DNA from: Cyanophora paradoxa CCMP329
Taxonomy: Eukaryota > Plantae > Glaucophyta
Assembly: GCA_004431415.1 (NCBI GenBank)
Contig: QPMI01000599.1
Coordinates: 124,001-188,000 of the forward strand
Length of the DNA: 64,000 nucleotides
Direction: 5' to 3'
Part shown: in pieces, positions 11,383 through 39,222 of the stretch
Position numbering within the stretch: position 1 is the first letter of the stretch
Layout of the letters: every line of letters starts with the position of its first letter
Made by a program: the position numbers and the translations under genes
Notes under the pieces: model-generated
The model's input: the letters and a program-made list of their open reading frames with translations, nothing else
Database searches by the model: none
What the model was told of the DNA's origin: nothing

Positions 11383-11840
11383 TTGATCATGATCATATCT
11401 CCGATTCAGAAGCTGGAACACGCGCACGAGACACAGCGCGAACGACAACCCACAATCGCGATCAACGCGTGCAATCGCGATCGGTGTGCTTTGTTCGCGA
11501 TCAACGCATGCCATGATGCGATCGCGATCGGTGCAATCGGTTCTATCGAATTTACGCATGTGTCATGTATACAGGTCACTGGAACTGCAACGCTTACGCA
11601 TGCATCGACTGCGCATGCGCATGCCGGGGCCGCAGCTGCAGATGCAGGCGCCGCACATACAGCTGCAGGAGGCGCGCGCAGACATGTGCAGCCGCAGCCA
11701 GCAAGATTGAGGGATCAATCTGCACGCATTTTTGATGCGATCTCAAGATTGAAGGAAGCGGTCGTCAATTCTCATGCGCAGCTGCAGCTGCAGACGTCGA
11801 CGTCGGCGATATCCGTACCTTCAATACTTGCGGAGATCGA
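11383..11840 (+). pseudogene. 5' part of the host dynamin-like GTPase gene, cut off by the viral insertion
   Basis: The ORF reads ...DAISRLKEAVVNSHAQLQLQTSTSAISVPSILAEI and then runs into viral DNA. The same peptide resumes at 39134 and continues into the G1 motif. The true gene start is uncertain. Confidence 0.75.
11750..11840 (+). repeat. Left copy of 91-bp target-site duplication
   Basis: TGAAGGAAGCGG...GCGGAGATCGA, identical base for base to 39132-39222. Confidence 0.95.
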
Positions 11841-11893
11841 TATGCCAGATCCAAGCCCTCGGGCTTCGCCCTCTGGCTTGGATCTGGCATATC
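11839..11893. repeat. Left terminal hairpin
   Basis: 19-bp perfect stem GATATGCCAGATCCAAGCC / GGCTTGGATCTGGCATATC enclosing CTC-GGGC-TTC-GCCC-TCT (internal mismatch plus mini-stem). Confidence 0.95.
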
Positions 11894-11976
11894 CCTATGT
11901 GTGCGCGTTTTAGGCACTAGGGTAGTAAGCATCTATTTTAGGTCTTAGGGTAATAAATATGTCTTTTTGGCACCAG
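11890..11976 (+). repeat. Left terminal inverted repeat (87 bp)
   Basis: Reverse complement of 38984-39070 with 7 mismatches by manual alignment. Confidence 0.95.
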
Positions 11977-11980
11977 CAAG

Positions 11981-12093
11981 GGGTGTTGAGGGTGTTGAGG
12001 TGTTGAGGGTTGTTTGTAAACTTTCTTATGAAAATTCTCTCTCGCGGGAATTTTTACATATAACCCTCAACACCCTCAACACTCTCAACACCC
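11981..12093. repeat. Left subterminal iteron-like palindromic cassette
   Basis: Arms (GGTGTTGAG)x3 and (CTCAACACC)x3 surround a core GGGTTGTTTGTAAACTTTC...TTTTACATATAACCC. The core is similar to the reverse complement of the core in 38843-38935. Confidence 0.85.
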
Positions 12094-12097
12094 TCTC

Positions 12098-12495
12098 TTA
12101 AACCTCAAACCTCCTCTTCTCATGGTGTAATCTCTTTTTGATCACTGCCCCAAATCCAATAGCATATTTGTTTATCTCCTCCTCCAGCTCAAAAGCAATT
12201 AAACTTGTATTCCTTTCTGCCTGTTTTCCACAGCTGAATATATCTATTGCCAACATGCCTTGATCACTGTAGCAATGAGCAGAGCAATGGCTTTCATCTA
12301 ATAATAATACTTGGGCAAATCCAGGGGTGATTTGGTGCCATCAAAAATCTCAGCATGTTTGTGGACAACCTGTATTCCATATTTCTTGATGATGTCTTCA
12401 CTGACATTCATGAGCCATTTAGAGAGCCCCACATGGTCGCTAATTGGTTGGCTGAATTGGAAATCAAGCATCACATGGTAACCTTTGGCAAGCAT
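12098..12495 (-). CDS. speD: Prokaryotic-type S-adenosylmethionine decarboxylase proenzyme (SpeD family), one frameshift near 12325
   Basis: MLAKGYHVMLDF...FDGTKSP, then in the adjacent frame PGFAQVLLLDESHCSAHCYSDQGMLAIDIFSCG...RRFEV*. Contains the E|SH pyruvoyl cleavage motif and DIFxCG. One extra C in the CCCC run restores the frame. Confidence 0.85.
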
Positions 12496-12540
12496 TTTGA
12501 TTACCAATAGAATAGAAAAAACAATAAGACATCTGACGAT

Positions 12541-13384
12541 TTAAGGCAAAGGATCACTTCCACCAATGGGATTGTATAAATTGGTGGTTAGATACTGTCC
12601 ATATCGATTTCCTCTTGCGATTTCATCATTTCTTTCAGCATACATAATTACTGTGTAAGTCCCTTGTTGTGTGGCTCTTATAATATATTGGTCATCTTGT
12701 GTGTCAAGCAGGGCAATGAATGAAAAGCAAGACCGAAATTATCTACTGGACTACTTGGACTGTAATACGGGGTCTTGCTCCATCAGTTCGTCTACATAAT
12801 GAGTAAATATCAGCAGGCAATGTCTCAATATACCTATAATGATTTCCCAAAGGCTCTAATACATCCAGAACGGCTGTTTGAAGGTTTATAATAATCGTAT
12901 TGATTTTTATAATGTAGGGCTCATTCATACCTGGGACATATGTCCTGATTCTTGTATTTACATCATCAGGATTGGGTTGATCATTTACTAACAGGGGCGC
13001 TCCAATAATTCCACCAACCCTTAAACCATCTCCAATATAGGCGCCTCCTGATCTACATTTAATTGCTCCCCTTCTTGCCTCATAGGCAAAGTTTGTTACC
13101 TTGTTGTCATCATTGTAACTATCAGGATCTCCATGAAACGCATTGAAATTCGCATTTGTTACAAGAAGTTTTGTAGTTTTAACGACCCCATTATTTTTGT
13201 CACATCTCAATTCTCTTAGTCTTAGCATGTGAGTGTCGCCAAAAGTATTAAGAGTTGGTGCTATCTCTGTGGATTCAAGGCCATCAACATTATCAATAAT
13301 AGCATGTTGTAAAACGTGATTGGCTGGAGCAGCTAATGATAGTTGGGCTGTTAAAATGCGTTCAGGTGGAGCAGGAGCTGCCAT
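12541..13384 (-). CDS. Putative virion/fibre-associated protein, paralog 1 (frameshifted near 12745-12710)
   Basis: The 213-aa ORF continues in shifted frames to DDQYYIRATQQGTYTVIMYAERND...SDPLP*. It aligns along its length with 13404-14247. Confidence 0.6.
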
Positions 13385-13403
13385 TTAATGTATCAAAACA
13401 TAT

Positions 13404-14247
13404 TTATGGTGTGGGATCATTCGGGAATGGATCGTCGTAGAAGTTGTTTAAGTTATTATCTGGATTTAGACCACGCGAAGATGCCCATGCTGCTTGGTCT
13501 GTTCTCAATCCAATTATAAGAACATCGTAGTTTCCAGTTTCTGTTGCGTAAAAATCAAAAGATTCCGGTTGAGCAAGATTTTGGAATAGAACCCAACCCC
13601 TCCCACGACCCATACTCTGAACATAGAAAGTATAGGCTGGACCTAACAGACCATTTTGTGATCTACACATTGCGTGAAGGGATCTGGGGATTGGAATATT
13701 TGGATAATACCAATCACCAGCTATTCCATTTGGCTGAGTTGCTGTGACATTTGTTAGCTCAACACGAACCTGCGCCATTGCCAAGCTTCAGCACCACATG
13801 GATTATACATTCGAATTCGTTGTGGATTATCCTCATTTTCTGGTAAAGTGTCAGGAATGTCATTGACTGAAACAGATGAACTAAGCATTCCTGATACTCG
13901 ACAACCGCCACCAATAATTGCTCCTCCTGATCTCACAACAGCAGCAGCGCGTTCACCATCAAAATCAAACCCTCTAAGGTCCACACTATAGGAATCCGGC
14001 TGCCTATAACAGCATTGAAGTTCGCATTCGTTACAAGGAGCTGAGTTGTTTTTACCACACCCGAATTTTTATCCGCGCGTAGTTCTTTTACACGAATCAT
14101 GCTGTTTTTATCAAAAGCATTACCAGAATTGGCTCGTTCTGTGGATTCAAGTCCACGAATTTCATCAGACACTTCGTGTTGTCTAAAATGAATTGCTGGA
14201 CTCCCCAATGCGTAAACTGGTAATTGGACTCGATTATATTCGCCCAT
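13404..14247 (-). CDS. Putative virion/fibre-associated protein, paralog 2 (split into 3 ORFs by frameshifts)
   Basis: Shares GLESTE, ELRxDKNxGVVKTTxLLVTNANFNA, RSGGAxIGxGxRVxG, RIRxYxP and ATxxGxYxV..RxD with paralog 1. Confidence 0.6.
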
Positions 14248-14287
14248 TGCTTCTTTTACTAAGAAGGATAGAAAAATAAACGAATAT

Positions 14288-17200
14288 CTATGCTACCATC
14301 TTCCCTGTTGCAATATAAGTCATTTGATAGTGGAAAAGTCCAATGCTTTCATTGTATTCTCTATTTGCCGAAATTGTTGCATAAATAGTAAATGTTGTTG
14401 TTGTGGAACTTGTGACACCATATACCAATACATATGAACCACCATTATACCCATCTCTTAAATTGAGAACGACTGCTGGGGCTTCTGCAAACGCTTTTGG
14501 AATGTGACAACTTGTGGAAATCCCCAATGACCCGGACCTGTGATTGCTAAGGATTTTGAAAAACTCCCTGTCTGTATATACTGGTCTTTATTGACCCGTT
14601 GTTCTGAGACAAGTTTCGCAATCTTACCATTGTCTTTTTCATCCATCGCATAGTATGCTCTTGCGTAAGCATTGCCACGACATAATAGTGTTTTATCGTA
14701 TATGTTCGCGGAATTGTGGAAGAACCACTGTTCGTAGAATAAAGGAGAGTCTGGTTGGTAAATTTGACCGGATCCTACATACATGGTATTATTTGCTGTG
14801 ATCGTATTTGCTACAAATGGGTCTAAGGTTGGGAAATCTGTGATTTCCGATTTCGTGTGAGTATGGCGAAATCTGTTATATTTGCCTTTGTGTGAGTATG
14901 TGCAAAATCGGTGATATCTGATTTAGTGTGAGAGTGAGGTCCGACAGTTGTGGAAGCTGTTGGTTTCCCGTAAATGTTATCCCAATGCAAGAAGCCACTG
15001 TGTGATGATACAGCAGGATTTTTACTCCAACCAACAAGACCCACAAGGTAAATCCTTCCAATTCGCCCTTGAACACCAACTTTACTCAGCCCTTCACAAT
15101 TTACCCCGACATATTGCCTATACTCTACACTTGGGTCACTACCAGGAGAATAAGCATTTACTCTCGAAAGTGTATAAGAATTTGTTGATGGATAAACTCC
15201 CACAACATCAAAGTATCTACTATTGTATTGACACACATAGAAGATATAGCATGTCTTCATTCCCGCGGGACAGTCCATAACATCTTGTAGCCACTACAAT
15301 CTTCATCACCAGAAGCCCATGTGTTTGCTCCTGAGTAAGGAGATATGAATGTAAAAAATCTCCAATCACCTGTGCGGTCTGTGGAAATACCACTTGTAGC
15401 ATCGAAATTTGTGGGTGCTGTATATGTTGGTTTATTAATTAAATCATCATAATTTCCGCTTGTCGCAACTGCTGCTAAGGTGGGTCTATCCGTAATATGG
15501 CTCCATAAATGTGGATGTGGTGAAGGTGTGAATGTTACAGGCTTATCTGTTATACTATTCCATGTGTGTGTGTGGTCAAAATCTGAAATCTCATCTTTTG
15601 TGTGAACGTGTGCAAAATCGGGTATCTCTAATCGGGAATGTGTGTGGGCAAAATCTGTTATTTGTGATTTTGTGTGAGTGTGTGTGGGTATCTCCAAATT
15701 GCTAAGTGTTAATCTGTCTTTGCCGATAATATTCAGAATTTCCCGAGTTAAGATTGGTTGAGTATTGGGAATCCATACATTTGTTGGATGTAATACCTTA
15801 CTTGTTGTTTTTCTGCTGTGGTTAATGCTCTGTTGAATACAATAATCTCAGCAATGCTTCCCGCAAATATTGTTCCAAATCCAAAATCGTTTATAGTGGA
15901 ATCAGGTAAATAATTATCAATTCCTGTGAGAGTTCCCACATCGACACCATTTAGCCCAACTGTGTAGCTATCAGAAGTTATTGTTTGGTCTGAGTAATAC
16001 CATTTATTTACCAAAGAGGGAACTGTGACAGCAATTGGAGGTTGTGTTACACCATTTATAGCGAAAGTAGTTGTCCCTAATCTTGTTGAATTATTTGCTC
16101 CATAGTAGGCAAATCGCGTTGGTGATGTTGTTTTTAGCACTCTCAAATGTGTATGAGAAGCACCTGTTTGTGTTAAATGATATCTTCCAATATAGAAGAA
16201 TGTCAAACCTTGTGACCAATCAATTGTTCTTGTCATCGTTGAGTTTGCTGAGAAGTTCCCTGAATCGCTTGTTAAAGTCATCTGATTATTTATAGCAATA
16301 TTGGATGAGTAGTAGGGACTTCCTGTGGAACTGACAGTTATAGATGGAACGATTGAGGAGACCCTATTGTAAAGAATTGTTGATGCTGCATTTTGACCGT
16401 GAACCCCTGATGCCTTCCAAGCAAAAATACAATTGGGAATGTTAGAAGCTGGATCAAAATTGGAAGTGATTCGATAAAAATTTTCACTATAAGATTCTAA
16501 ATAGCTTCCGGTTCCCATTTGAATTTTCCCTCCAACTGTTAGGTTGCTTGTCACCACCAAGTTGCTGGTAATGGTTCCACCATTGAGTGGTAGATAATTA
16601 GATAATGCTACATTAAGTTCCTGTTCAGTCACATATTCTTCAAGAATTGCTGCAAGTTCTGTATCGTCTACATAATTTTTGCTTTCAAGGTAATCATCTG
16701 TGACAACACCTGAAAGGGTCTCATTGTGTAAATTTTTTGCCGCCATTCTCTGATTGACTTCTAAGGCGCCACCTGCTAATGTTTTGATCCACGCCATCTC
16801 ACATTTCCCGAAATCATCTTTTGGTTGTCCCACAAGTGGTGCGTAATTGAATTTCGAGCGACTAAATATTATTTTCGGTCTTGATCCATCGGTTGCGCTT
16901 ACATCTGTAACGTTTACTTGTAAGATGGCGTCTTTATCATCATAACTCACTGGATCTAATGGAAGTGGAGGTAAACCTGCTGTTAATGGGATATCTTCAT
17001 TATAATAACTTGTCAAAAACAGACCTGGTTTAGTATCTATAACTCCCACCCCACCTGCTGAAACCATTTGAGATCTTGAAGGTTGTTTAATGTATAATTC
17101 GCCATCCATTGTGGTGCCTGCATCTATTCCTTTTCGGTGCAAATAGTATTCACTTAATTGTAATCTTTCAGGAATGGTGTCACTCTGATAGAAACTAACC

Positions 17201-20200
17201 CCATAAAATCCGTCACCATTTACTAAATCACCTGTTGATGCAAAACGTGGTTTTTCATCTATTTCACTCCATGGGTGTTTGTGGTTAGAGTTTGTGATTT
17301 CGGAATAATCATGAGTGTGTGAATCTGGTGGAAAGGTTAACGGAGGATTTGTGATATGCTCCCATAAATGAGTATGGGCAAAATCTGTAATTTGCGCTTT
17401 GGTGTGTGTGTGGTTTTGTATCCAACCTTGAACCACATTCGATGTTGGATGATGAGGAAGATTAGCATTACTTGTTACAGTGAGATAATCGATCACTGTA
17501 TCGGGTGATGTGATCTTTAAACCTCTGTAAATGGTCAGAGGTTGAGTATTGGGGAATCCATACATTTGTTGGATGTAATACCTTACTTGTTGTTTTTCTG
17601 CTGTGGTTAATGCTCTGTTGAATACAATAATCTCAGCAATGCTTCCCGCAAATATTGTTCCAAATCCAAAATCGTTTATAGTGGAATCAGGTAAATAATT
17701 ATTAATTCCTGTGAGAGTTCCCGCATCGACACCATTTAGCCCAACTGTGTAGCTTGTAGAAGTTATTGTTTGGTCTGAGTAATACCATTTATTTACCAAA
17801 GAGGGAACTGTGACAGCAATTGGAGGTTGTGTTACACCATTTATAGCGAAAGTAGTTGTCCCTAATCTTGTTGAATTATTTGCTCCATAGTAGGCAAATC
17901 GCGTTGGTGATGTTGTTTTTAGCACTCTCAAATGTGTATGAGAAGCACCTGTTTGTGTTAAATGATATCTTCCAATATAGAAGAATGTCAAACCTTGTGA
18001 CCAATCAATTGTTCTTGTCATCGTTGAGTTTGCTGAGAAGTTCCCTGAATCGCTTGTTAAAGTCATCTGATTATTTATAGCAATATTGGATGAGTAGTAG
18101 GGACTTCCTGTGGGACTGACAGTTATAGATGGAACGATTGAGGAGACCCTATTGTAAAGAATTGTTGATGCTGCATTTTGACCGTGAATCCCTGATGCCT
18201 TCCAAGCAAAAATACAATTGGGAATGTTAGAAGCGGGATCATTACTGGCTGTAATAGAATACCATTCTCTGTAAAGTTGGTTCATGGTATTAAAGTTGCC
18301 TGAGCCAATCGTTAGAATTCCATTCACTTTTAGGTTGCTGGTCTCTATGTTGCTACTGTAAATATTACTATTTACTGTAAGGTTTCCTGTGATTGTCCCA
18401 CCAACAAGCGGGAGATATTTTGATAATTCCGCGGCAAGTTCAGGTTTTGTTACATAATTTCCAAGCATCGCAAGAGTTACGAAATTAACGAGAATTACAG
18501 CCGTTAGGTAATCTTCTGTTACCACTCTCGAAATATCTTCATTGTGTATATTTTTGGCGCTTGCTCTTTGATTGATTTCTAATAAACCTTCACCAACTCC
18601 GCCATTATAATTTGTTTTTATCCATGCTACCTCACATCTTCTATAATCATCTCGATTTCCTATAAAAGTATTTGGTAAAAGACGCTGCCGACTAAATACT
18701 AATTTCGGTCTCGATTGGTCAAAATCGCTTACATCTGTTACATTAATTTGGATTGCGGCATCTTTGTTATCATAACTATTTGGATCTAATGGAAGTGACG
18801 GTATCGGAGGTAATACATCTGTCATCGGGATATCCTCAGGGTAGAAGCTTGTTAAATAAATTCCGGGTTTCGTCTCATATAAACCAAAATTACCATTGAT
18901 TGGTAAAATCCCCTCTCTTCTGGGTGGTCTAATGTATAATTCGGCTTCCATTCCTGTGCCTGCTTCTATTCCCATGCGATTAAGGTAGTGGTCATTTAAT
19001 TGTAATCTTTCTTCGATTTCTATGTTTCGGTAGAGACTTACGCCATGTTGGAAATCTGTTAATATATTTCCTGCCGATGCGAAAGTAGGTTGCTCATCGA
19101 TTTCGTCCCAATTATGCCTATGATCTGCTGGTGGAAATTCAGTAGGTATGTTATCTAAATCTTCCCAATCGTGCCTATGCTCTGTCGGTGGGAATCTATC
19201 AGGTTTATTCTCGATTTCGTCCCAATCATGGCCATGGGGATCAGGTGGATATGTTTGTGGTTTATTTCGAATGTCCTCCCAATCCACTATGAAATCGAAT
19301 AGATCAGGTGCGAAACCATCAGGTAAAAGCTGCTCATCAAAAGGCTCGTAGCGATCATAAGTTACAAGATTTGGGTCGAAACCATCTGGTAAGACATTAT
19401 CCTCTTCAAATCGCCTATCTTCAAGAGGTATAACATTTACATCTGGTGATAAAAGCTCCTCAGCTGGTTGTTTGTAATCTGTAAATACTGGTTTGTTTCT
19501 GACTTTTTCCCAGCTAACTATGTGCTGCCCAAAGGCTACATTTTCCTCTGCTGTGTATTCCCTCCCAGGTTGCTTCTTTGGTGTAAGGTCAGGTGGATCC
19601 CACGGAAGCGGAAAGGGACAGGAACAGGACCGTAATGCTCAAAGATTTCCCTTATAGTTTTCTCACTGACAAGCTTCTCACCATTGGCATACACATTGCT
19701 TCCATGGATATTTCGCCACTGCCTCGTCCTGATTCCAAGGTCTTTTGTGTTTGTGACCAAAGGTAAAAGGTGCCTATCCATTTCGACAAGATCAGGATGT
19801 AAATGGATTGCTACTGGTTGAGTGGGGCTGCTGTTGATGGTAATTGATGGCTTTTTCTGGTGGACATCATTTGGAGTAAAAAACCCAAACGGCTCATTCC
19901 TCGCAAAGTCATATGTAATATCCTTGGGGTATACATCATTAGTTGAACAGACTTGATTCGTGTTCTGGAAATGGCCCACTTGTAATACTTGGGGAACCTC
20001 TGTTTTTGTGGTGCTGCCCTCATTATAAATTCTTAAACCTGTGTTCTGTTTGCCCTGCTCATCTTGTACATTGAAAATCAAACGGCCACTATCACACCTT
20101 GATGGTATGTCTGGATGGGTTCCACTTGGTTTGAGTTTTCTCGGTCTCCTTCTGGTTGCCTTGATCTCTGCTACTTGATTGGCTTTCACATTGCCCAAAC

Positions 20201-20408
20201 TAAAAGCTATACTGACATCCTCCTTGTCTGGATCGGTCTGATTTAAGGACAGGGCATGCTCCCTTGATTGAGTCTTTGAAGAACCGTCAGAGCTGTGGTC
20301 GATTGATATTGAACCTTTAACTTTTATATTATCAAAGTTCACATGCTTTGTGCTGCTGGAATTATCATCTTGAATTGTTTCCAGATTAGGGGGGTAATTA
20401 AAGCTCAT
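14288..20408 (-). CDS. Giant fibre/adhesin-like protein (about 2,000 aa if frameshifts are repaired)
   Basis: Six consecutive same-strand ORFs in shifted frames. They contain phage tail-fibre-type HxH repeats (HTHTKSQITDFA, HxHxWxxIxxKP), YLPLxGGTITGNL, two LamG/concanavalin-like domains (FAGSIAEIIVFNRALT) and a C-terminal fibre-tip-like domain (IQTG...VTF-PKAFAEAPAVV...TTTTFTI). Confidence 0.75.
15756..18241. repeat. Internal duplication in fibre gene: about 700 bp near-identical (15756-16456 vs 17540-18241) within a more diverged unit of about 1785 bp
   Basis: Identical antisense ORFs at 16071 and 17856 (offset 1785). The protein repeats the LamG-like domain almost verbatim. Confidence 0.9.
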
Positions 20409-20451
20409 GGCTTTTACTATATGGATTTATAAAATTCCTTATAAGTATTAG

Positions 20452-22008
20452 ATGCCTCACAAAATAGTCCTTAGTTTGTCAGGTGGCGGGGCAAGGGGCA
20501 TTATCATTACCAGACTTCTTAAAGAAATCGAAAATCGAACTGGCAGGCGTATAATAGATCTTGTGGATCTTGTTAGTGGAACTTCCACAGGTGGGATCAT
20601 TGCCATTGGGTTGAACATTAGGCATCCAGATAGGGCAGGCGAACCCAAACTCACAGCCAATGATTTACATAATATATACCTCACTCAGCTGCCCTTGATT
20701 TTCGCAAATCCTCGAAATATAATCGAAAATGCCCTTTTTAACACCAAGTATGATGTGGCTCCTTTAGAAAGCGCAATCAATTCTGTTACTGGCGAATCCC
20801 TCATTCAAGATTCCTTGAAGGACATTGTTATTACTTCGTTTGATACTCAGTACATGAAACCTATATTCATCACAAACGATAACAACTACAACTTTCTGCC
20901 CTGTAAAATAGCAGCAAGGGCTACCTCTGCTGCTCCCACCTACTTTTCACCTGTGAGTATAGTTGACTTCAATCATGGGATAACTGCTTGCCTTATTGAT
21001 GGTGCTATCTCAGGAAACAATAACCCCAGCGTGTGTGGCTATAGCCATGCGAGGAAGATTTACAGTGATGATGATGACATTATAGTTATAAGCATCTCTT
21101 GTGGTGAGGTAGACCCATATTTAGAGTCTGATTATTTCGGCTATGCTTATGAGACTGTGAACAGTTGGGGCATTCTCTCATGGATTGCCTCAACAGATGG
21201 AAGCCCATTGATTAACATGCTCATGGCAGCAAGTGAGCTGTCGGCTCTTGACAAGATGGAGGAGTTGCTACCTTATAACTACGATCAGGATTATGGAAGG
21301 TACTATAGGCTATCTGTTCCTCTTCCAAATCACATAGTCAGGTCCCTTGATGATACCTCTAAAATCCCTGACATGCTTTCGTTCACCGAGACATACATAG
21401 CAGCAAACAACAGCATGATTAATAAGCTTTGCGATTTGCTGGTAGCAAACTATGAATTAAAGAACCCATCAAAAGCATACATCTCTTCCACTCTCACCCT
21501 GTCACCACCTTTGGATGCTAATTGGTACAAACTTGCTGATGATGCCTTTACTGCCTCCTCCTCTGTGATAGGTAAAGAGCCCCACATGGCTCGACCTTCA
21601 TCATTTGGCTGGGAAGCTGGGGCATTTGCTCCAGAGCAGATATGGGAGACCCCCACTGAGTACCTTCAAGTTGCTTTCCCATACACTTTTGAACTCTCTT
21701 CAGTGGTTGCCTATGGGTCAGGGGACACCAATGCTTTTATAAAGACTTTCAGTGTGGCTACATCAACTAATGGGGTCAACTGGTCTTTTATTCGAGCAGA
21801 AGGGCAGAACAAAACATTTGTTTGTGAGAATATAAACAATGCTAATAATTCCGGCGATATAGCTTTATTAAATGGTTACCCTCTCACCATCAAGGATGCT
21901 TTCTACGTAGGGTTCTCTTTGAGAATCAAGTATGTTCGCATTTATCCCCTTGTCTATGTGAATGCTCCCACAATGAGAGTCGATTTTACAGGTGCGTTTA
22001 TTCGATAA
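20452..22008 (+). CDS. Patatin-like phospholipase fused to a C-terminal discoidin (F5/8 type C) domain
   Basis: LSLSGGGARG, SGTSTGG, ATSAAPTYF and IDGA motifs. C-terminus has FTASS, EYLQV, FSVATSTNGVNW, KYVRIYP and MRVDFTG. Confidence 0.9.
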   Translation: MPHKIVLSLSGGGARGIIITRLLKEIENRTGRRIIDLVDLVSGTSTGGIIAIGLNIRHPDRAGEPKLTANDLHNIYLTQLPLIFANPRNIIENALFNTKYDVAPLESAINSVTGESLIQDSLKDIVITSFDTQYMKPIFITNDNNYNFLPCKIAARATSAAPTYFSPVSIVDFNHGITACLIDGAISGNNNPSVCGYSHARKIYSDDDDIIVISISCGEVDPYLESDYFGYAYETVNSWGILSWIASTDGSPLINMLMAASELSALDKMEELLPYNYDQDYGRYYRLSVPLPNHIVRSLDDTSKIPDMLSFTETYIAANNSMINKLCDLLVANYELKNPSKAYISSTLTLSPPLDANWYKLADDAFTASSSVIGKEPHMARPSSFGWEAGAFAPEQIWETPTEYLQVAFPYTFELSSVVAYGSGDTNAFIKTFSVATSTNGVNWSFIRAEGQNKTFVCENINNANNSGDIALLNGYPLTIKDAFYVGFSLRIKYVRIYPLVYVNAPTMRVDFTGAFIR

Positions 22009-22931: not shown

Positions 22932-22939
22932 TTTAATAT

Positions 22940-27292: not shown

Positions 27293-27320
27293 AAATATCT
27301 CTCACTTTAATAAAGACACA

Positions 27321-28055: not shown

Positions 28056-28083
28056 GAAAAAATAAACGTTTTTTCTATTATAA

Positions 28084-28314: not shown

Positions 28315-28339
28315 GTTATTTTGTCCTGTTACTTGTAAG

Positions 28340-28615: not shown

Positions 28616-28620
28616 GCACA

Positions 28621-29838: not shown

Positions 29839-29995
29839 TTTGGTATATGCGAAACTGAAAATATTCGTAGCTCGTCACCAGATCATCGTAAGGCTATGAT
29901 GTTGGAGTCTATAAATATCTACTTTGTACGAGGAATCCAACGGTGATAGCGGCAAGGAGTGAATCGGTGATTTTAAGATGGGGTACTTACAATTT

Positions 29996-30231
29996 TCATG
30001 ACTTTCTCCAGCTAAAATTTGCTTTGTGGAGTAGGGCATACCCCTCCATGCCATAGTTATCACATATGATGTTCTCATATGCCTCCATCAATCTGCGCAA
30101 TTCTTTACTTTTCTGGGGGTTGATGTCTTGGGGGGACTTCCTATACTCATCATAATACTGCTGCCTGACTGCCTCCCACAGTTCAACCATGTCCTCAAGG
30201 GGATGTCATCATAGCTGCTATCTGAGTCCAT
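29996..30231 (-). CDS. Small hypothetical viral protein (frameshift near 30200)
   Basis: MDSDSSYDDIP joins LEDMVELWEAVRQQ... if one C is added to a C run. AAAATTGA lies about 52 nt upstream. Confidence 0.45.
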
Positions 30232-30380
30232 GGTGGTACTGGTGGGCTTATGTAAGACTGTTTGGGGGTTGGGGTGTCAAGAATCAATTTTTGGTGGGCA
30301 CTTGGGGGCTTGGGCTCTTCACCATGCTATATGAAGATGTCCTTAAGTGCTGGTGGCCTACAAGCAAGTGGGGTGGATTT

Positions 30381-30740
30381 TGGGGGGTTAGGGGACTCAA
30401 GGAGAAGTTAGGGGGGTTTCTGCCAACTGACGTCTTGTTGTTTAGGTTACCATTCTCAGTCTGGAAGGTGGGGTTTAGGGGGGATTAGGGGTTGTGGAGT
30501 GGGTAGGGGGTATTCTCTCACAACTCTATATATTTCTGGCTTGTTGCTTAAAAATGAAAAGATTTGGAGGCTATAGGAGTTATATATCCCCCCCTAACCC
30601 CCCTAACCCCCCCACATGTATACATTATTACCATTTCTGGTCATAAAACAACCAGAAAGTAAAAAACGATCCCCCCCCAGATCCCCCCCCAAACTTCTGG
30701 AAACCCCCCCAAACCCTCCCAAACCCCCCCAAACCCCCCC
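30381..30740. repeat. G/C-run iteron-like repeats downstream of the primase-helicase
   Basis: GGGGGTTAGGGG-type runs (30381-30492) face CCCCCCCTAA / AAACCCCCCC runs (30587-30740). Confidence 0.75.
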
Positions 30741-30758
30741 AGGCCTATCATGAGCCCC

Positions 30759-33032
30759 CTAATCCTCCTCCTCTTCCAAAAATTCCACCAACAGCCCACA
30801 GCTCTTGAAGTAAGCCATCATCTCATCCCACTTGAAGACATAACACTCCCTTCCACAATACTTGGTAGGCCTCACATATTCCAGTCCAGCCATCTCAATG
30901 TAGAACTTCCTTGAGCTGAATTCATTCTTGAATTTATTAATTGTAATGAACTGCTGGAACCACTCCCACACCTGTTGCCTGTTCTCAGTCCTTGGTGTAT
31001 CCTTGGTAATCTTTTGGGTGTCTACCAAATCCTTGGTGAACAAGGCAGTGACAGGAACACTTGCTTGTTGGGCAAGGTAGTAGCTGTTGGTCATTGGCCT
31101 GTCAGCATACCAGTTCACATCTGTGACATCCACCTTGTTTTTCAAGTAAAGGAATACCATGTGCTGGTTTCTTGGCTCCTTCAGCCAATTACCCAGTGAC
31201 TTGAAATATTTCATGTCACCCTTTTTCTTGTCACTCACCTCCACAATCACAAACCTTCTATCTCCAGCCTCCACTTTGATTGGTAGGGTGTTGTTGGTAG
31301 TAAATATGATCCTGGCAAAATTCCTCACCTCATGAGAATTGACATACTTAGCCTCAATTACAATTTTCTCAGCAGTGATCATGTCCTTGAGGGCATCACT
31401 GTTTGTGAAGGTGTCTTTGCCACTTGCCTCATTCACAGTGATAAGTAGTTTGTGCTTTCGCTGGTGGGCAAAGTTTCCAAATAAGTCCTTCAGTGGGTTG
31501 GCTGTGCTGAAAGCCAAGTCCCCACCCAGTATTTCATTTTGAAACCAATCCAATATGATGTTCTTCCCCACTCCTTGCTTTCCCTTGAAGATGATTGAAA
31601 TCCCATTCAACTCCCCAGGTCTCTGAATAATGTGGGCAAAGTACTTCAGTATGTAATTGAATGTAGAAGCATCTTCACCACTGAGAATCATCATGTGGTC
31701 AAGGAATGGGCTAACATCTTCCTCAGTTACATCAGGAGGAATATCCATTTTACTCACATCCATAAGCTCACCTTTCATACCAGCATAGGCATTAAACACC
31801 TTGGCAGTGGTGGAAGCAGATTTTACAGGAGGTGGGAGGAAGTCCAAGTAATCATACCTTGTGGCAGTCTCATCTTTCGCCCACTTTTTGATGAAGTTAT
31901 GAGGCTCCATCTTCATAGACATTAGGTCAAACTCTGTGTACTGAATGTGAGGGTATACATCCTCAGCCAAGCTTTTGAAGCTGGTTGTGTCATACTTCTT
32001 GGTATGATCATTCCAAGACAAGACAAACCCAGGCTTCATAATGTGAGCAAGTCTGGCATCCATGTAGGGCTTGATCTCCATGTAATCACAGTTGGTAGGA
32101 ATTGGAGCAGTCTTGTAATCAATGTTGGAAAGGGAAGCTTGACATTCAGGTACATCAAACCCACTGGCCATAGGTTTTTCCACAAAAGTCACCCTGTAGC
32201 CAGTTTTTCCCTCCACATAATCACTAACCTCTTCCAAAGCACTCAATACTTTGGGGTCTTTCCTGATCATACATCCATCAAAGACCAAGACATCCACATG
32301 GAGCTTAAGAGCACTGAAGTACTCACAAGCAGCCATTAACACCTGATTCTCAAGGTCACATAGTACCATATTCATGGTGGAACCAAGTACATTGCTTTCT
32401 TTCTTGCGCTTAGCAATAGCATAGAAGCGCTGCTTCTCAATCCCACCAATGAATTGATGGACTTTGGCCATTTCCTCTTTGAGATCACTGAAGTACTTGT
32501 GATTGATAAGTAGGCTAGAGAGGTCAGCCCCTTGCCCACCATTGATGACTGCCAGAATGCTGCGCTTGACATCAGCCTTGGATTTCTGGGTGACCTCACA
32601 GAGATCATCAAGAATTTCATCCCTGCTCTGAACATATTTGTTCAGCTGAGGAGTGGCAATTGAATGTTTCTCACAATACTGAACAAGCAGGACAGGGTGG
32701 CAGTTCACAATGTCAATGTCATAGTAGTAGTCCTTGGAAATGGTGTGGCGAATTTCCCTACAGATGCTTTGAAGGCTGGGGGTTTTTCCATCCACAAAGT
32801 ACCTACCAGTGTTGTGCTTCACCTGCTTATATTTACAGGTGTGGTAGCCCTCATGATCGACGATAGAAAGTAATTTCTGGATGATGGCTCTCATTTGGGT
32901 CTTGTCAGTTTCAGGGCGAAACTGGAGATTATCAAAGTTCTCCACCACCCATTTGAGGTTACCTCTGTGGATGCGCTCAGTGAGAATGAAGGTGTTGCCA
33001 TTGGGGTTGATTGAGCTGAATGAGGGAGCCAT
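30759..33032 (-). CDS. PolA-like (TV-Pol) primase/polymerase fused to a D5-like superfamily 3 helicase
   Basis: N-terminal GRYF...SLQSICREIRH...DIDIVNCHP...LVFDG. C-terminal Walker A GKQGVGKN, Walker B ITVNE, IIFTTNN and DRRF. Intact, 757 aa. Confidence 0.85.
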   Translation of the reverse strand: MAPSFSSINPNGNTFILTERIHRGNLKWVVENFDNLQFRPETDKTQMRAIIQKLLSIVDHEGYHTCKYKQVKHNTGRYFVDGKTPSLQSICREIRHTISKDYYYDIDIVNCHPVLLVQYCEKHSIATPQLNKYVQSRDEILDDLCEVTQKSKADVKRSILAVINGGQGADLSSLLINHKYFSDLKEEMAKVHQFIGGIEKQRFYAIAKRKKESNVLGSTMNMVLCDLENQVLMAACEYFSALKLHVDVLVFDGCMIRKDPKVLSALEEVSDYVEGKTGYRVTFVEKPMASGFDVPECQASLSNIDYKTAPIPTNCDYMEIKPYMDARLAHIMKPGFVLSWNDHTKKYDTTSFKSLAEDVYPHIQYTEFDLMSMKMEPHNFIKKWAKDETATRYDYLDFLPPPVKSASTTAKVFNAYAGMKGELMDVSKMDIPPDVTEEDVSPFLDHMMILSGEDASTFNYILKYFAHIIQRPGELNGISIIFKGKQGVGKNIILDWFQNEILGGDLAFSTANPLKDLFGNFAHQRKHKLLITVNEASGKDTFTNSDALKDMITAEKIVIEAKYVNSHEVRNFARIIFTTNNTLPIKVEAGDRRFVIVEVSDKKKGDMKYFKSLGNWLKEPRNQHMVFLYLKNKVDVTDVNWYADRPMTNSYYLAQQASVPVTALFTKDLVDTQKITKDTPRTENRQQVWEWFQQFITINKFKNEFSSRKFYIEMAGLEYVRPTKYCGRECYVFKWDEMMAYFKSCGLLVEFLEEEED

Positions 33033-33130
33033 TCTATAATAGGGTGAGATAATTATTTCAGTGAACTATACCCTTAAGTACTTTTCAGAAAAAGGAGTAA
33101 CTCCAATCAATTTTTTCGGACCCCCCACCC

Positions 33131-33322
33131 TCATACATAGGGATTTCGCTTCCTTGGCCGCCCCCTCCGGTCAGGAACAGCCTCTTCAAACAAATACCTG
33201 ATACACAATAAAGCGCCTGCTCTGTACGTACTAACCCTTACATATTTCTTGTGAAGCTCTCGAAACTCTGGGTCATTTTGAATCCTGCGTTGGATGTATC
33301 TCATTTGCTTTGTGTATGCCAT
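33131..33322 (-). CDS. Small basic protein with AT-hook (RRGRPRK)
   Basis: 63-aa ORF with an upstream ACTTAAAA motif. Confidence 0.55.
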   Translation of the reverse strand: MAYTKQMRYIQRRIQNDPEFRELHKKYVRVSTYRAGALLCIRYLFEEAVPDRRGRPRKRNPYV

Positions 33323-33375
33323 TGCTTGATGCGTTTCCTCTTATAGTATAGTTGAGATTTCTTTTTAAGTAGATT

Positions 33376-33876
33376 TCACTCTTCAAAACGTTGGAGGGAT
33401 AGCTTACATGCGCGTACTATTTTTTGGGTGGGCACCCAGTTACTCAGCCTCTTCTCAATCTTGCCACATTGAGTAATCATCTGATTAATCCAATGAACCT
33501 CCCCCAAATCACAGAAATTTATGTCCCCAGAAGCATGTTTAAATAATGAGTTTCTGAGCTCTTTGCTCTTTTGAACAAAGATATTCTTGACATCACTCCA
33601 CAAGAGTTTGATAATTGGATTTGACCCTTCACCATACTGCCATGTAGAGGAGTTACCAACCCGAAAATACCATAGTCCTTGTTTTTTACCTTCAGGGATT
33701 CTGTAAAGCACCTTGTGACTAAGAGCCAGACGGGCAACTTCAGCTATTGACTGGTCAGTGCCCTCCATGATACATCGTGAGACAGCTTGTTTAATAGCCT
33801 CCTCATTCTTGGATTGGACAGCAGCCACTTCAGTGGTGTCAATCGTGAGAATTCGAGCATCCATTGTGACAATCAT
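33376..33876 (-). CDS. Hypothetical protein, possibly a stand-alone D5 N-terminal-like domain
   Basis: TDQSIAEV...LWYF...TW...L pattern recalls the domain upstream of NCLDV D5 helicases. Upstream ACTTAAAG motif. Confidence 0.5.
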   Translation of the reverse strand: MIVTMDARILTIDTTEVAAVQSKNEEAIKQAVSRCIMEGTDQSIAEVARLALSHKVLYRIPEGKKQGLWYFRVGNSSTWQYGEGSNPIIKLLWSDVKNIFVQKSKELRNSLFKHASGDINFCDLGEVHWINQMITQCGKIEKRLSNWVPTQKIVRACKLSLQRFEE

Positions 33877-33981
33877 CTTGATCTCCTTTGAATATAGTAG
33901 AGAAAATAATCTTTAAGTAGTAACTATACCAGCACTTAAAGAAATAAAATGTTCCCTATATAGAATACAGCCCCCACAACC

Positions 33982-36900
33982 ATGCCCCGCCCCAGCCACT
34001 ACCAAATTAAGGAGCTCCAGGACAAGATTCTCGGGAATCTGGCGTTCTTACTGGCCAATCACTCCATCAGTGAAAGTGAATATGAATCTTATATTAAACA
34101 GACCAACAAGAAGCTCAAGGGGCTTCAAGCTCTCAATCGAGAGCTATTAGGGAAAATCGAGACCCTTGATGAGACTGATCGCCTTGGCCAAATCCAAGTC
34201 GAACAAACTACCACAACTCAAGTCAGAGGAGATGAATACACTACCTTAATAAATGAACATCGTGCTCTTAATAATAAATACATTGATTTTACCATCAGGG
34301 CTCACCACCAGATCCTGACCACTCAAGAGTTTATAGACACCTACTCTGAGGAACTCCACACAAGGCTCCAAGATGCCATCAATTCACAGATGTCGATTAA
34401 AACTCGCTTTACGTTTGTCTGTCGCTTTTCAAAAGCAAACAATTCGAGAGACTTTATTACCAAGCACATTTACAGCACCTATGCTATCATGACAAGATCT
34501 CGAACCCTCACTAAAGAAACTGCGAAATTGGCTAAGGAATGCCAGTCGCAAATTAATGTCACAGACAGCTATAAACTCCAAAGCATTGAGGCTTTGAGAG
34601 TGATTGTTCTGTCCTTTAAACCCATCTCAGGAGGTGCTTTTATCCCACTCCCAGAGTGGCTCAAAAATAAACGAGCCATTGTCAATGTTAATAACAAGGA
34701 CAATAGATGCTTTGAGTATGCTATCCTTTCTTATATTCACAAGGACGAAGTAAATAGCCACAAGCGCAATGAGACTTCCCAATACAGGAGGTGGTTCAAA
34801 AAAGAACTAAATTTCGAGGGCATTGAGTTTCCTGTAAAGGCAGATGCTGATACTATTGATCTCTTTGAAAATCTCAATCCAGCAATCTCTGTTAATATTT
34901 ACGACCCCTCTAACTCTACAGAAGAAATTAATCTACTCCACAACAGCTCCTCAAGGAACAGGAAACACCAAGTGGATCTGCTGCTAATTACAGACGAAAA
35001 TGGTAACAGTCATTATACCACAATATTCAGCATGTCCAGAGTCTTAGCTAAAAATGATAAGCAGCGACTCCATTTCTGTAAAACCTGTTCCAACCACTTC
35101 AAGACTGAGGAGAAGCTTCAATCCCACATTCAAAGCAAACGTTGTGTGGATTGGAAGACAAGTGCTGGAGAGACCCCAAAACAACCCACATTCATTGAAT
35201 TTGGTCTTAAACATCTCTCAAAGACTGTATTCCTCCCCGTGATTGCCTATTGCTATTTCGATTATGAAACAGATATTTCTGGTATGTTCAAGATCAAATC
35301 AATCTCACTGACAGCTCTTCATAATAATAGAGTAGTACTCACTAAAACCCACTCCAACATCTTTGAGCTCCTGAGTACCCTCGACAGCACAGCCCAGAGC
35401 TATTCAAAGCCCTATTTACCAACATCCCAATGTCACTGACCAAAGAGCAGAAACGTACCCATTACCTTGCTAAAACCTGCTACATCTGTGAGGGTACGTT
35501 TTCCCAAGACAACTATAAAGTGAGGGATCACGACCACCAAACTGGCGATTTTGTAGGCACAGCATGTCGCAAATGTAATCTCCACAGACGCACCAGCAAT
35601 CTCACCAAGATTCCCATAGTGACCAATGATCTGTCCCTATCTGGAACGCAGATATTCAAGGCAGTCGCCTTAAATCCCGAAAAAAGGGTGGAAGTCCTCG
35701 CAAAATCGTTTGACAGCTACATGTCGATCACCTGGGGCTGTTTCAAATTCATTGACATCAAAAACTTTATTGATTATGGCGTCCAGAACGTGGAAGGATT
35801 AATGGAAAAGTTCCAGCTTTTCCGCCAGAAATCACACAAAACTTTTGGGATGGATGCTGCCCACTATGTCTCAAGTCCGGGGCTTTCGTGGGACAGCATG
35901 CTATCTATTACCAAGCCTAAAATCGAGCTTCTTTCCAACCTTGATATGTACAACATGGTTGAAGGCATGATCAGGGGAGGCCTTTCGATTATGAATCATA
36001 AATATGCCAAAAAGGAAAGGGACAGACACATTATATATTTGGATGCCAATAACCTATATGGATATGCCCTGTCCCAAACGCTACCCCTCTCGAATTTCCA
36101 ATGGCACCCAGAACCCTCAAATTACGACCTGTCATCAGCAGAGGGGGCCATCTTAGAAGTTGACATCCATTATCCCCAGCACCTCCATCAACTCCACAAA
36201 GAGCTACCTCTTGTCATCAAGAGAGCAGAGGATGGACTTCAAGCAGCCTGCGAAGACATTTGTAATTATGTGGTGTCGAAACCTTTGCTCCAATTCATGG
36301 TAGCGCAAGGCTTAAAGGTCACCAAAATCCACAGGGTGCTAACATTTACTCAGGCTGCCTTTATGAAGCCTTACGTCGAATCCAATGCCCAAAACCGCAA
36401 AGCAGCCCCTTCCAAACCCGAAAAGGACTTCTTTAAGATCATGAACAATAGCCTTTTTGGCAAAACCATTGAGAAAGTGAGAGGAAGGTCTAATGTCAAG
36501 ATTGCCACCAACGAAAAGCAATTTATGAAATACGCCAGATCGCCCTACTCAAAGCAGAAACAAGACTAAGCGATTCAGCAGTAGCCTTCGAAATGCTACA
36601 AAAAGATGTCAAGTTAGATAAGCCCATAGCAATTGGGGCAGTTGTTTTAGATCTTGCCAAGCTGCGCCTATTTGATTATTATTATAACACCATCAAGCGG
36701 AAATGGCCAGACTGTAAACTGCTTTTTACTGATACAGATTCGCTTTGCCTTCAAATAAATTCGAAAACTATAGCAAAAGACCTACAAGACATTGACACAC
36801 ACCCCACAGAGCTTGGAAAGTTCAAAAATGAGTTTGAGGGCAGAACCATTATTGAATATGCTGGGGTAAGGCCGAAATGCTACAGCATTAAAACAGATGA

Positions 36901-37075
36901 TGAGGAAATAAAAAAGCTGGCAGGTGTTTGTAAGGAGACCATTCAAGCAGATCTGTCTTTCCAAGATTATAAAGACCATGTGCTCCACCAAAAACCCAAG
37001 CAAATCGAGATGACTGTTCAAAAGAAGCTTGATAATGAGACGTTTAATGTGAAGATGTCCAAGATTGCTTTCTAA
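33982..37075 (+). CDS. polB: Maverick/Polinton-type family B DNA polymerase polyprotein (vOTU-like, C2H2 finger, EndoVII-like insert, PolB); frameshifts near 35420 and 36548
   Basis: FIPLPEWLKNKRAIVNVNNKDNRCF...SHY; CKTCSNHF...H; CYIC...VRDHDHQTG...CRKCNL; IRGG; YLDANNLYG; KIMNNSLFGK; FTDTDS; GKFKNE; RPKCYS. Confidence 0.92.
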
Positions 37076-37086
37076 TCCCAATATAG

Positions 37087-38454
37087 ATGTCATCAAAGAT
37101 CACACGCAGACAAACAGAGTACGATGTGAGTATATTGCCAATCCCAATCCCTCAAGAGGAGAGAGGGGGTCGCATTCAGAAAAAGAGTGACCTCAAAGCT
37201 TTAGTTCCTGCGGATATCCCAACTGCCATTGCTGTGCCTCACTTGGATCCCTTAGCAAGGACATTCTATGACACCAAGGTAGGATTTAAAGGCCTTGCTT
37301 CATTGGCCAAAGAGCTTCCAGATGTGCCAAGAAAGACAATCCGTAGATTCTATGATGCCCAAGAAATCAACCAGATAAATAAACCCCTCCCATCTGCCAA
37401 GAAGACTGCCTATATCCCAATAAGACAGCCACTCGACTGCTATGCCATAGACCTAATCTTTTATCCTTCGTACAGCAAACAGAATCAAGGCTACAACACG
37501 TTCCTCACAGCTGTAGAAAATACCACCAGACTGGGCTTTATAATTCCCATGAGGGGAAAGACAGCAGAAAGCACATTGAACGCATTTAAGGAGCTTGAGC
37601 AACAAGTCCCTCGTCCAATTGTGAAGATACAAAGTGATGCTGGGAGCGAATTCCTGAACAAGGTATTTAAAGACCATTTAGAAACCCAGATGATTGAGCA
37701 CCAAGTTTCGCAGGTTGGAGATCACAATAGCCAAGGCCGAATAGAAGCCTTTAATCGCACAATAAAGAAGCTAATTAACTCGTATTGTATAGCGAATAAT
37801 ACTGTAAAGTTTTTCGACAAGCTCCAAGATTTTGCCTACAACTACAATAATACCATCCACTCAGCAACGGGGATGAAACCAGCAGAGACCACAGAGGTAC
37901 ATGTTCCTCTAATACTCGGAAAAGAAAACGAGAAATTCATGAAGTCAATTGAATATCTAAAAGACTATCCAGCAGGGAGCCACGTGAGAACTAAAATAGA
38001 GAAGAGCCCATTTGCCAAACAAGGGAATAATTGGAGCCGCGAAATATTCACAATAGAAGGAGTGGAGGGGTTCAAATTTAAACTAAGGGACATTTCTGGC
38101 AAACTAATAGATCGACTTTATGCCCACTACGAATTACAGAAAGTGGAAACCGTGGAGTTCTTGGAGGCGCCATCAATAAATGTCATTGAAGAGGCAAAGA
38201 AAGAGGCCAGAACAGAGCGACTTTTGGCCAGAGAGGGGATTGAGAGGGCGCCAAACGTGCCAGATAAACCATTATTGGAGGACAGAGCAGGGAAGAAGAA
38301 GAAACAAGGGAGAGAGTTGGAGAGATTGAGGGTGGCGGGAACAGAGAGATTAGCAGGGGGAGCAGAGGCAGTAAGGTGGTATAGAGATTTCTCGAATTCA
38401 AAGGAGACCTATGAAGCTCCAGCAATTTCCACGAGATCAAGGAGGAGGATTTGA
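37087..38454 (+). CDS. Retroviral-like (rve, DDE) integrase of Polinton type
   Basis: YAIDL (D), IQSDAGSEF (D), IEAFNRTIK (E), YNNTIHSATGMKP and FAKQGNNWSREIF. Intact, 455 aa. Confidence 0.93.
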   Translation: MSSKITRRQTEYDVSILPIPIPQEERGGRIQKKSDLKALVPADIPTAIAVPHLDPLARTFYDTKVGFKGLASLAKELPDVPRKTIRRFYDAQEINQINKPLPSAKKTAYIPIRQPLDCYAIDLIFYPSYSKQNQGYNTFLTAVENTTRLGFIIPMRGKTAESTLNAFKELEQQVPRPIVKIQSDAGSEFLNKVFKDHLETQMIEHQVSQVGDHNSQGRIEAFNRTIKKLINSYCIANNTVKFFDKLQDFAYNYNNTIHSATGMKPAETTEVHVPLILGKENEKFMKSIEYLKDYPAGSHVRTKIEKSPFAKQGNNWSREIFTIEGVEGFKFKLRDISGKLIDRLYAHYELQKVETVEFLEAPSINVIEEAKKEARTERLLAREGIERAPNVPDKPLLEDRAGKKKKQGRELERLRVAGTERLAGGAEAVRWYRDFSNSKETYEAPAISTRSRRRI

Positions 38455-38464
38455 GCAGAGAGGA

Positions 38465-38768
38465 GGATGGGGGGATGAGGGGATGGGAAACCCATCCCCT
38501 TGTACTCGAATAGAAAATTTCAAAAAACAAAAACAAAATTTGTTTTCTGAGAAAAGTCCCATCCCCCTGACTGAGTCCCATCCCCCTCCCATCCCCCTGA
38601 CCAGATATCGTCACAAATCAACCAAATTTCATACATTTTCCCATCCCCCTGCCATCCCCTCTGCCATCCCTCCCATCCCCTGCCATCCCCTCCGCCATCC
38701 ATCCCATCCCCCTGCCATCCCCTCAAACCACCCTTTTACCAGACACTCCCATTCCCCTTCCATCCCCT
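38465..38768. repeat. GGGGATG / CATCCCC iteron-like repeat cluster
   Basis: Three GGATG-type units followed by more than 10 CATCCC(C) units directly after the integrase stop. Confidence 0.8.
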
Positions 38769-38842
38769 GACTATTCAAGATATCTCTTTAAGAGAAAACG
38801 TAAAGAAATGAAGAGATGGTTGGCAGTCTTAATTATGGATAG

Positions 38843-38935
38843 AGGCAGGAGAGGCAGGAGGGTTATATGTAAAATCCCACACAAGAGGGGAATCCATAGG
38901 AAAGTTTACAAATAACCCTCCTGCCTCTCCTGCCT
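38843..38935. repeat. Right subterminal iteron-like palindromic cassette
   Basis: Perfect 24-bp arms AGGCAGGAGAGGCAGGAGGGTTAT / ATAACCCTCCTGCCTCTCCTGCCT. The core is homologous to that of the left cassette. Confidence 0.88.
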
Positions 38936-38983
38936 AATTGGTGCCGAATCCAAGCTTCTAATACCCCAGAGGCGGCCAACATA

Positions 38984-39070
38984 CTGGTGCCAAAAAGACA
39001 TGATTAATACCCTAAGACCTGAAATAAATGCTTACTACCCTAGTACCTGAAACGCGCACACATAGGGATA
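38984..39070 (-). repeat. Right terminal inverted repeat (87 bp)
   Basis: Reverse complement of 11890-11976, 80/87 identical. Confidence 0.95.
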
Positions 39071-39133
39071 CCCCTGATCCAAGCCTGTAGGCCGAAGGCC
39101 GGAGGGCTTGGATCAGGGGTATCCCTATGTGTG
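39057..39133. repeat. Right terminal hairpin
   Basis: 29-bp perfect stem CACACATAGGGATACCCCTGATCCAAGCC / GGCTTGGATCAGGGGTATCCCTATGTGTG enclosing TGTA-GGCC-GAA-GGCC-GGAG. Confidence 0.95.
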
Positions 39134-39222
39134 AAGGAAGCGGTCGTCAATTCTCATGCGCAGCTGCAGCTGCAGACGTCGACGTCGGCGATATCCGTAC
39201 CTTCAATACTTGCGGAGATCGA
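39132..39222 (+). repeat. Right copy of 91-bp target-site duplication
   Basis: Identical to 11750-11840. Confidence 0.95.

Follow-up and report, generated by a model that had tools for sequence, protein, structure and literature searches.

A Polinton-like virus of Cyanophora paradoxa between two copies of 91 bp of host DNA, the probable scar of a one-ended integration

A 64,000-nucleotide stretch of the Cyanophora paradoxa CCMP329 genome (GenBank assembly GCA_004431415.1, contig QPMI01000599.1, positions 124,001 to 188,000 of the forward strand; hereafter the window, with positions counted from its first letter) contains a Polinton-like virus (PLV) that interrupts a host dynamin-like gene, ends in terminal hairpins and encodes an rve-type integrase. 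How did an element with such an enzyme come to lie between two exact copies of 91 bp of host DNA? Target-site duplications (TSDs) measure 4-6 bp in the parts of PMC5041404 that deal with rve integrases and at most 9 bp in those of PMC8547959, so that, as an earlier note on this locus had argued, 91 bp is not the product of a concerted rve reaction, and host repair must have acted. The integrase nevertheless has an intact D-D-E triad (D122, D184, and E220, the latter two 36 residues apart), as the same note had also stated. We propose that a one-ended integration probably left this duplication as its scar: the integrase would have joined the right end of the element, and host repair the left.

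The sequences 11750-11840 and 39132-39222 constitute a maximal exact direct repeat of 91 bp, the flanking letters differing on both sides, which confirms the identity reported earlier. The next-longest exact repeat between the flanks 9000-11749 and 39223-44500 is only 14 bp, thus the 91-bp repeat is not a chance match. Both 11750 and 39132 fall on the second base of a codon, and translation from the left of the insert stays in frame on entering the P-loop exon at its right, so the host frame is unbroken across the empty site and the 91 bp were present once before the insertion. The element is surrounded by intron-rich eukaryotic DNA of very high guanine-plus-cytosine (GC) content; its immediate neighbourhood has 51-62% GC, within a host region of 65-83% GC. 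The interrupted gene lies in a region (9400-11750 and 39223-44500) that has about 52% GC and many short palindromes.

The two ends of the element are not alike. The hairpins described earlier are real and unequal, with perfect arms of 19 bp on the left (11839-11857/11875-11893) and of 29 bp on the right (39057-39085/39105-39133, including the host base G39133). At three paired positions the stems differ between the ends, but every change is compensated, so both stay fully paired. A second, branched hairpin lies 100-200 bases inward of each end, and its arms likewise differ between the ends yet remain paired. The bases GA (11839-11840) and TG (39132-39133) are shared by the repeat and the hairpin stems, as had been noted; however, the right-hand TG is probably not a microhomology, since the element is inferred to end with T39132, which equals host T11750 by chance, and the host to begin with G39133. 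With T39132 taken as the last element base, the true duplication is 88-91 bp and contains one real 2-bp overlap, of a size expected by chance at about 16% of junctions if base frequencies are equal. The right end is therefore exact, at the inferred family terminus, whereas the left outer arm falls 9-11 nt short of the 28 nt of the family form, a figure judged from the length of a loose contig end: 9 bases are missing, or 11 if the GA is counted as host. Because the right end falls exactly at the inferred terminus, only the left end looks repaired, which argues that the integrase joined one end. The loss of 9-11 bases from the left tip explains the unequal arms, and hairpin opening as the entry step, proposed in the earlier note, is not supported. 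The hairpins, which are a family trait that probably serves self-primed replication, are dispensable for explaining the duplication.

The usual form of the family ends was read from contigs of public sequencing runs (Logan contigs), using four runs for positions 11000-13000 (32 of 334 pieces and 24 of 123 loose ends listed) and one run, X1, for positions 39025-39264 (8 of 37 pieces and 6 of 9 loose ends listed). The left region is present in 20 of the 21 runs listed, and the insertion is present in runs dated 2012, 2019, and 2024. In X1, the single-copy flanks have depths of 105 and 123 and the element interior of about 1500 (1502); these values indicate a family of about 12-14 copies, contig depth being a rough guide rather than a copy number. 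One contig, of depth 2382, covers the right-type loop with its outer arm and breaks off at 39132. For the left-type hairpin, the contig has depth 555 and a 45-letter loose end, 30 letters of which are printed and the rest deduced from its length, corresponding to the 17-nt loop and 28 arm letters, and it stops at the same point in the arm as the right-type contig. Half of the summed loop depth is 1469, which matches the interior depth. Since loop depths of 2382 and 555 stand against flanks of 105-123, nearly all copies carry an unfolded hairpin. From depth and break points we infer that the family normally integrates with its hairpins unfolded and with the terminus 5'-ACACAT...ATGTGT-3'. The end motif (AC)2A//T(GT)2 is likewise derived from break points and is read directly only at the right end of the 11841-39132 element; the terminal 10 bases so deduced are the same in both hairpin types. 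The motifs TGTGTG (11898-11903) and CACACA (39057-39062) do lie at the hairpin bases, as previously reported; however, the suggestion that this inner TG...CA is the normal processed end of the family is contradicted by the depth of the loop and outer arm.

The run contigs contain approximately 20 right-type and 5 left-type ends, and one contig links a variant repeat to the right-type hairpin. Right-type ends that continue with G after ...ATGTGT make up at most 20-38%, near the 25% expected for random flanks, a bound that assumes conserved depth and no record ending before 39132. Since at most about a third of the ends continue in this way, it is unlikely that most of them are covalently closed or joined head to head. 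A loop inversion of the flip/flop type known from adeno-associated virus (AAV) finds no support among the contigs listed, none of which begins between 39058 and 39072, and the depth bins 39057-39064 and 39065-39072 are equal.

At the locus itself, the right junction was found in a run contig (39106-39161, depth 92) with at least 28 letters on each side, short of the 31-letter threshold for bridging. Since this depth compares with flanks of 105-123, most chromosomes appear to carry the insert. Of the two junctions that the earlier note proposed to check, the right one is thus seen in a run contig, and the left one is in no contig listed.

The proposed sequence of events, each step of which is deduced from the end product, would be as follows. 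At the right tip, the integrase would join the 3' end (T39132) to the top strand of the host immediately 5' of G11751, and the transfer of the left end would fail. The free left 3' end would then be trimmed by about 9 bases, and its last two bases would pair with the host GA some 90 bases downstream; a host polymerase would extend the left end back over those 90 bases, and the new strand would join the left flank by homology. The outcome would be the order host, repeat, element, repeat, host, with one exact and one trimmed end. A corresponding route is described for retroviruses in the cited part of PMC5041404: after trimming, the free 3' end primes on host DNA close by and is extended by a host polymerase before joining by homology, so that one side carries a duplication or the other a deletion. 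When only one retroviral end is inserted, the other is often truncated, usually with short homology, and the host DNA most often carries a duplication far longer than 5 bp, which can reach hundreds or thousands, according to the same source. We favour one-ended integration because the combination of an exact end, a trimmed end with short homology and a large duplication matches this published signature.

Several observations weigh against this proposal. The 2-bp overlap on the left is no more than the chance background mentioned above provides at 16% of junctions. The left junction (11840/11841) is in none of the contigs listed for the four runs, and the depth of the bin 11804-11870 leaves no room for a contig that contains it in any of the four (in three of them by scaling from X1). 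The retroviral cases arise only where an end is crippled, a drug is present or the integrase is weak, and normal fidelity is high in the part of PMC2857682 concerned, so that one aberrant copy in about 12-14 would exceed the rate of a healthy retroviral integrase; so high a rate leaves room both for long duplications throughout the family and for later breakage of the left end. Indeed, a normal insertion followed by breakage of the left hairpin gives the same sequence. In addition, the duplication length is that of this single copy, depth is no copy number, and the contigs listed for 39025-39264 are 8 of 37 pieces. On balance, the locus is probably a one-off accident, as the earlier note had allowed, in a new hairpin-ended Polinton-like family.

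Later breakage is the alternative that survives best, although we consider it unlikely. Here, the element would have integrated normally with a short duplication, after which its left hairpin would have been broken by a stalled fork or by cutting of a cruciform; repair would then have used the right flank or an empty allele as template for about 85 further host bases before rejoining at GA. Perfect palindromes are fragile, which fits such an event, and the end product, with trimming confined to the left tip, is identical. However, two events and a template are needed, whereas one-ended integration does it in one step; copying from the right flank would require priming from 5-6 bp of homology, and the empty allele is hypothetical, given a right-junction depth of 92 against flanks of 105-123 that suggests an insert on most chromosomes.

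It is somewhat less likely again that this hairpin-tipped family with unequal ends routinely integrates by one end and leaves the rest to host repair, so that long duplications and trimmed tips are its normal footprint. The more general version, in which long duplications are regular because one of the unequal ends is a poor integrase substrate or because the integrase attacks distant sites, and in which many copies carry duplications of 30-100 bp, appears rather improbable. The ends of the 11841-39132 element do differ (88% identity, two hairpin types), the left-type hairpin is met only with the left repeat among the contigs listed, and few long flank contigs are among those listed for 39025-39264; furthermore, a survey of PLVs covered only 50 bp of flank (PMC12220804, in the part cited) and would miss such repeats. 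On the other side, the left-type contig is unbroken to arm position 28, so the other left-type ends (about 4-5) were not trimmed likewise, and both hairpin types probably share their terminal 10 bases. Any duplication of at least 31 bp is expected to cause a break at +30 in a 31-mer contig graph; among the junctions listed, that of one other copy runs 69 letters past the end with no break there (n = 1) and hence lacks the long-duplication pattern.

We regard as similarly improbable the capture that the earlier note had proposed, in which an opened hairpin genome entered a widely staggered double-strand break without the integrase, using a 2-bp microhomology at both ends. The two 2-bp overlaps as written, and a duplication too long for a concerted integrase, agree with it. 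However, the right end coincides exactly with the terminus deduced for the family, whereupon the TG overlap falls away and the left end is the only one that looks repaired; a 90-base stagger would need two nicks and melting between them, and the integrase triad is intact.

The left junction might also be an assembly artefact, a long-read assembly having misjoined a family copy and doubled the 91 bases, to which we give slightly less credence still. The missing left-junction contig is consistent with this, as is the right flank contig, which crosses the whole repeat without a break at 39222, and the window carries single-base indels relative to the run contigs (for example, these have an extra G after 12323 at full depth in all four runs). 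The left flank contig, however, ends at 11779 in all four runs, as a 31-mer graph does where a second path enters the repeat. Moreover, depths of 105 and 92 enter the repeat and 123 leaves it via the right flank, so approximately 75-90 must exit by a path dropped from the contigs; without a left junction, the right flank should have a depth of about 200 rather than 123. The right junction, at depth 92, is present in the run contigs. Assemblers can prune short links, and the 58-letter one expected here between nodes of 200x and 555x may have been lost in this way. Logan contigs are simplified graphs and lossier than unitigs according to the cited part of 10.1101/2024.07.30.605881. The evidence for the left junction is the window sequence and this balance of depth.

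Finally, although host DNA is known to be duplicated when neighbouring insertions recombine and the two ends differ in sequence, it is very improbable that two copies inserted 90 bases apart on different chromosome copies recombined inside the element and doubled the DNA between them, since two insertions within 90 bp among about 14 copies would require a strong target preference of which there is no sign, the left-type hairpin accompanies the left repeat in about 5 ends so that unequal ends are normal, and the trimmed left tip would stay unexplained.

Table 1. Features of the Polinton-like virus and of its insertion site (positions in the window).
Feature	Position	Strand	Remarks
Host dynamin-like gene, coding part upstream of the duplication	11680..11749	+	in frame with the right flank
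Left 91-bp copy	11750..11840	+	host coding exon of the dynamin-like gene; final GA overlaps the trimmed left end of the element
Left terminal hairpin	11839..11893	+	19-bp perfect stem, 17-nt loop containing a 4-bp mini-stem
Polinton-like virus	11841..39132	.	~27.3 kb, mostly 38-48% GC per kb
Terminal inverted repeat, left arm	11868..11976	+	109 nt, 88% complementary to 38984-39092
Left sub-terminal branched hairpin	11995..12080	+	
Major capsid protein, predicted double jelly-roll	24025..25395	+	structure model pLDDT 40, Foldseek
A32-like packaging ATPase	26510..27292	+	PF04665, E 4.5e-4 on the first half
SF3 (D5-like) helicase with N-terminal domain bearing PolA/TV-Pol-like motifs	30759..33032	-	R77, D105, D252
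Protein-primed family B polymerase (pPolB) with endonuclease VII domain	33982..37075	+	PF03175, E 1.1e-13; PF02945
rve integrase, 455 aa	37087..38454	+	PF00665, E 1.3e-5 (below curated cut-off)
Right sub-terminal branched hairpin	38843..38935	+	31-nt arms, 97%; homologous to the left one
Terminal inverted repeat, right arm	38984..39092	+	partner of 11868-11976
Right terminal hairpin	39058..39132	+	full family length, 28-bp stem, 19-nt loop, terminus ...ATGTGT
Right 91-bp copy	39132..39222	+	T39132 doubles as the inferred last element base
Host dynamin-like gene, remainder of the interrupted exon with P-loop (GRFKSGKS)	39223..39358	+	PF00350, E 1.6e-5

The gene content of the element is that of a PLV, and it works like one, although we do not class it as a canonical Maverick (Table 1). 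Two replicases occur side by side, pPolB and a fusion of a PolA/TV-Pol-like domain with an SF3 helicase, the latter having 109 relatives. The helicase assignment is firm, whereas the N-terminal domain is putatively TV-Pol-like by its motifs, the RxxxK motif not being confirmed. In the assembly, pPolB is split over three reading frames and the A32-like ATPase gene has one in-frame TGA (26885-26887); given the full-depth single-base indels between the window and the run contigs, these breaks may be assembly errors or differences from the family majority. The capsid protein gave no sequence-profile match, and a sequence search of solved structures was also empty. A low-confidence structure model is consistent with a double jelly-roll fold: among 47 matches in the PDB at E<=0.001, all 28 rows listed are double jelly-roll capsid or scaffold proteins, with template-modelling (TM) scores of only about 0.25 and best rows that mix mavirus and giant-virus capsids. 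A first model, whose predicted local distance difference test (pLDDT) score was 31.6, was not used. No Pfam match to a maturation protease was found among the 19 open reading frames (ORFs) of the element that were scanned, several ORFs of about 90-150 aa lying outside this set, and the ORFs 22323-22931 and 22940-23806, candidates for a single jelly-roll minor capsid protein, have no Pfam or PHROG match.

A minus-strand series of fibre-like genes with HTHTK-type repeats and a LamG domain occupies 12743-19287 and includes an internal 300-nt repeat (15767-16066 and 17552-17851, 98%); the run contigs contain several divergent variants of 12500-13000, which suggests that the fibre modules are exchangeable. 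The cargo encoded at 20452-22008 is a fusion protein, with a patatin-like phospholipase and an F5/8 type C (discoidin) domain. Between the capsid and ATPase genes, the ORF 25502-26449 combines repeated treble-clef zinc fingers with a nuclease-looking C-terminal domain (DUF4379, weak DUF2726), and is placed like a homing endonuclease. A non-coding block at 29180-29840 contains two 132-nt direct repeats (29212-29343 and 29707-29838, 96%) with a 31-bp tandem array of 7.8 copies between them (29433-29673); it is rich in short palindromes, like host intergenic DNA, and is possibly a nested mobile element or an origin.

Relatives of the family are few. The integrase has five, the best at 54%, and the capsid protein only two clear ones (P0006 and P0007). 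P0006, which is 57% identical and was found in a proteome set of eukaryotes, could indicate that this host, or one related to it, has a second subfamily. In IMG/VR, 7 pattern matches for the integrase and 8 for the capsid yielded none confirmed, and two DNA patterns, for the hairpin and the repeat, had no match; in the JGI metagenomes, none of the 297 pattern matches of the integrase alignment was confirmed. The sole match to the terminal DNA pattern, L001, lies inside coding sequence of bacterial type that has neither hairpin nor repeat, and it was set aside as a chance hit.

If the proposed reading is true, the locus would provide a natural PLV example of the one-ended integration known from retroviral laboratory work. 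In the open literature (subscription journals were outside the search), we found no long or one-ended integration of Polintons or virophages. Copies without a TSD in surveys may hide long duplications, which surveys of 50 bp of flank would score as lacking one. A single repair scar is no new mechanism, and the duplication most likely reflects an accident already known from retroviruses rather than a new integration mode. The more lasting result is the family itself, with its 12-14 or so copies, ends that keep their hairpins, a probable Maverick-type end motif, and two replicases.

The closest likeness for the duplication is offered by one-ended proviruses of avian sarcoma-leukosis virus (ASLV) and HIV-1, which, in the cited part of PMC5041404, share the exact end, the large host duplication, an rve-type integrase and, if the left junction is as assembled, the truncated end with short homology. 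They differ in that they arose in laboratory experiments in which an end was mutated, an inhibitor was used or the integrase was weak, whereas we deal with a natural insertion of a 27-kb DNA virus whose route is deduced from its product. Endogenous mavirus-like elements (EMALEs) of Cafeteria burkhardae (PMC8547959) and the rve-bearing PLVs of cryptophytes (PMC12220804) are likewise low-GC viruses of 20-30 kb inserted by rve integrases in protist genomes. As far as the main texts of these two papers go, TSDs are usually 3-5 bp (range 1-9) in the former and about 4-7 bp, within 50 bp of flank examined, in the latter, and word matches for palindromes or hairpins number zero in both.

Mavericks/Polintons, as described in the cited part of PMC8097293, have in common with the element pPolB, an rve integrase, an A32 ATPase, a double jelly-roll capsid, and terminal inverted repeats. 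Their end motif 5'-(AC)3A//T(GT)3-3' is of the same type as the terminus inferred here, which has one unit fewer; other Maverick end motifs reported there are (AG)3 and (AGT)2. Differences from Mavericks include the duplication of 88-91 bp in this copy instead of a TSD of 5-6 bp, the lack of a protease among the 19 ORFs scanned, the terminal hairpins, and the extra PolA-like/SF3 helicase. TV-Pol/SF3 fusions and elements with two replicases are already known from the relevant parts of PMC3671162, PMC2579912, and 10.64898/2026.10.13.758929.

The hairpins find their counterpart in endogenous virophages of subtypes 1, 2, 5, and 6 and PLVs of subtype 4 from Halocafeteria seosinensis, reported in 2026 (10.64898/2026.07.28.741278). 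In the main-text parts on these elements, palindromes lie within the terminal repeats, adjacent to the target duplication, and are associated with certain rve integrases and with replicases other than pPolB; long duplications go unmentioned there. The likeness extends to the rve integrase, to a putative non-pPolB replicase of the Cyanophora element, and to the lack of a protease in the PLVs, whereas the Cyanophora element also has pPolB, two hairpin types, short (approximately 110 bp) terminal repeats of 88% identity, and a capsid protein with only two clear relatives. Hairpin-primed replication has been proposed for the Halocafeteria elements (10.64898/2026.07.28.741278), and the Cyanophora family would be a second host lineage for this model and a place to test it.

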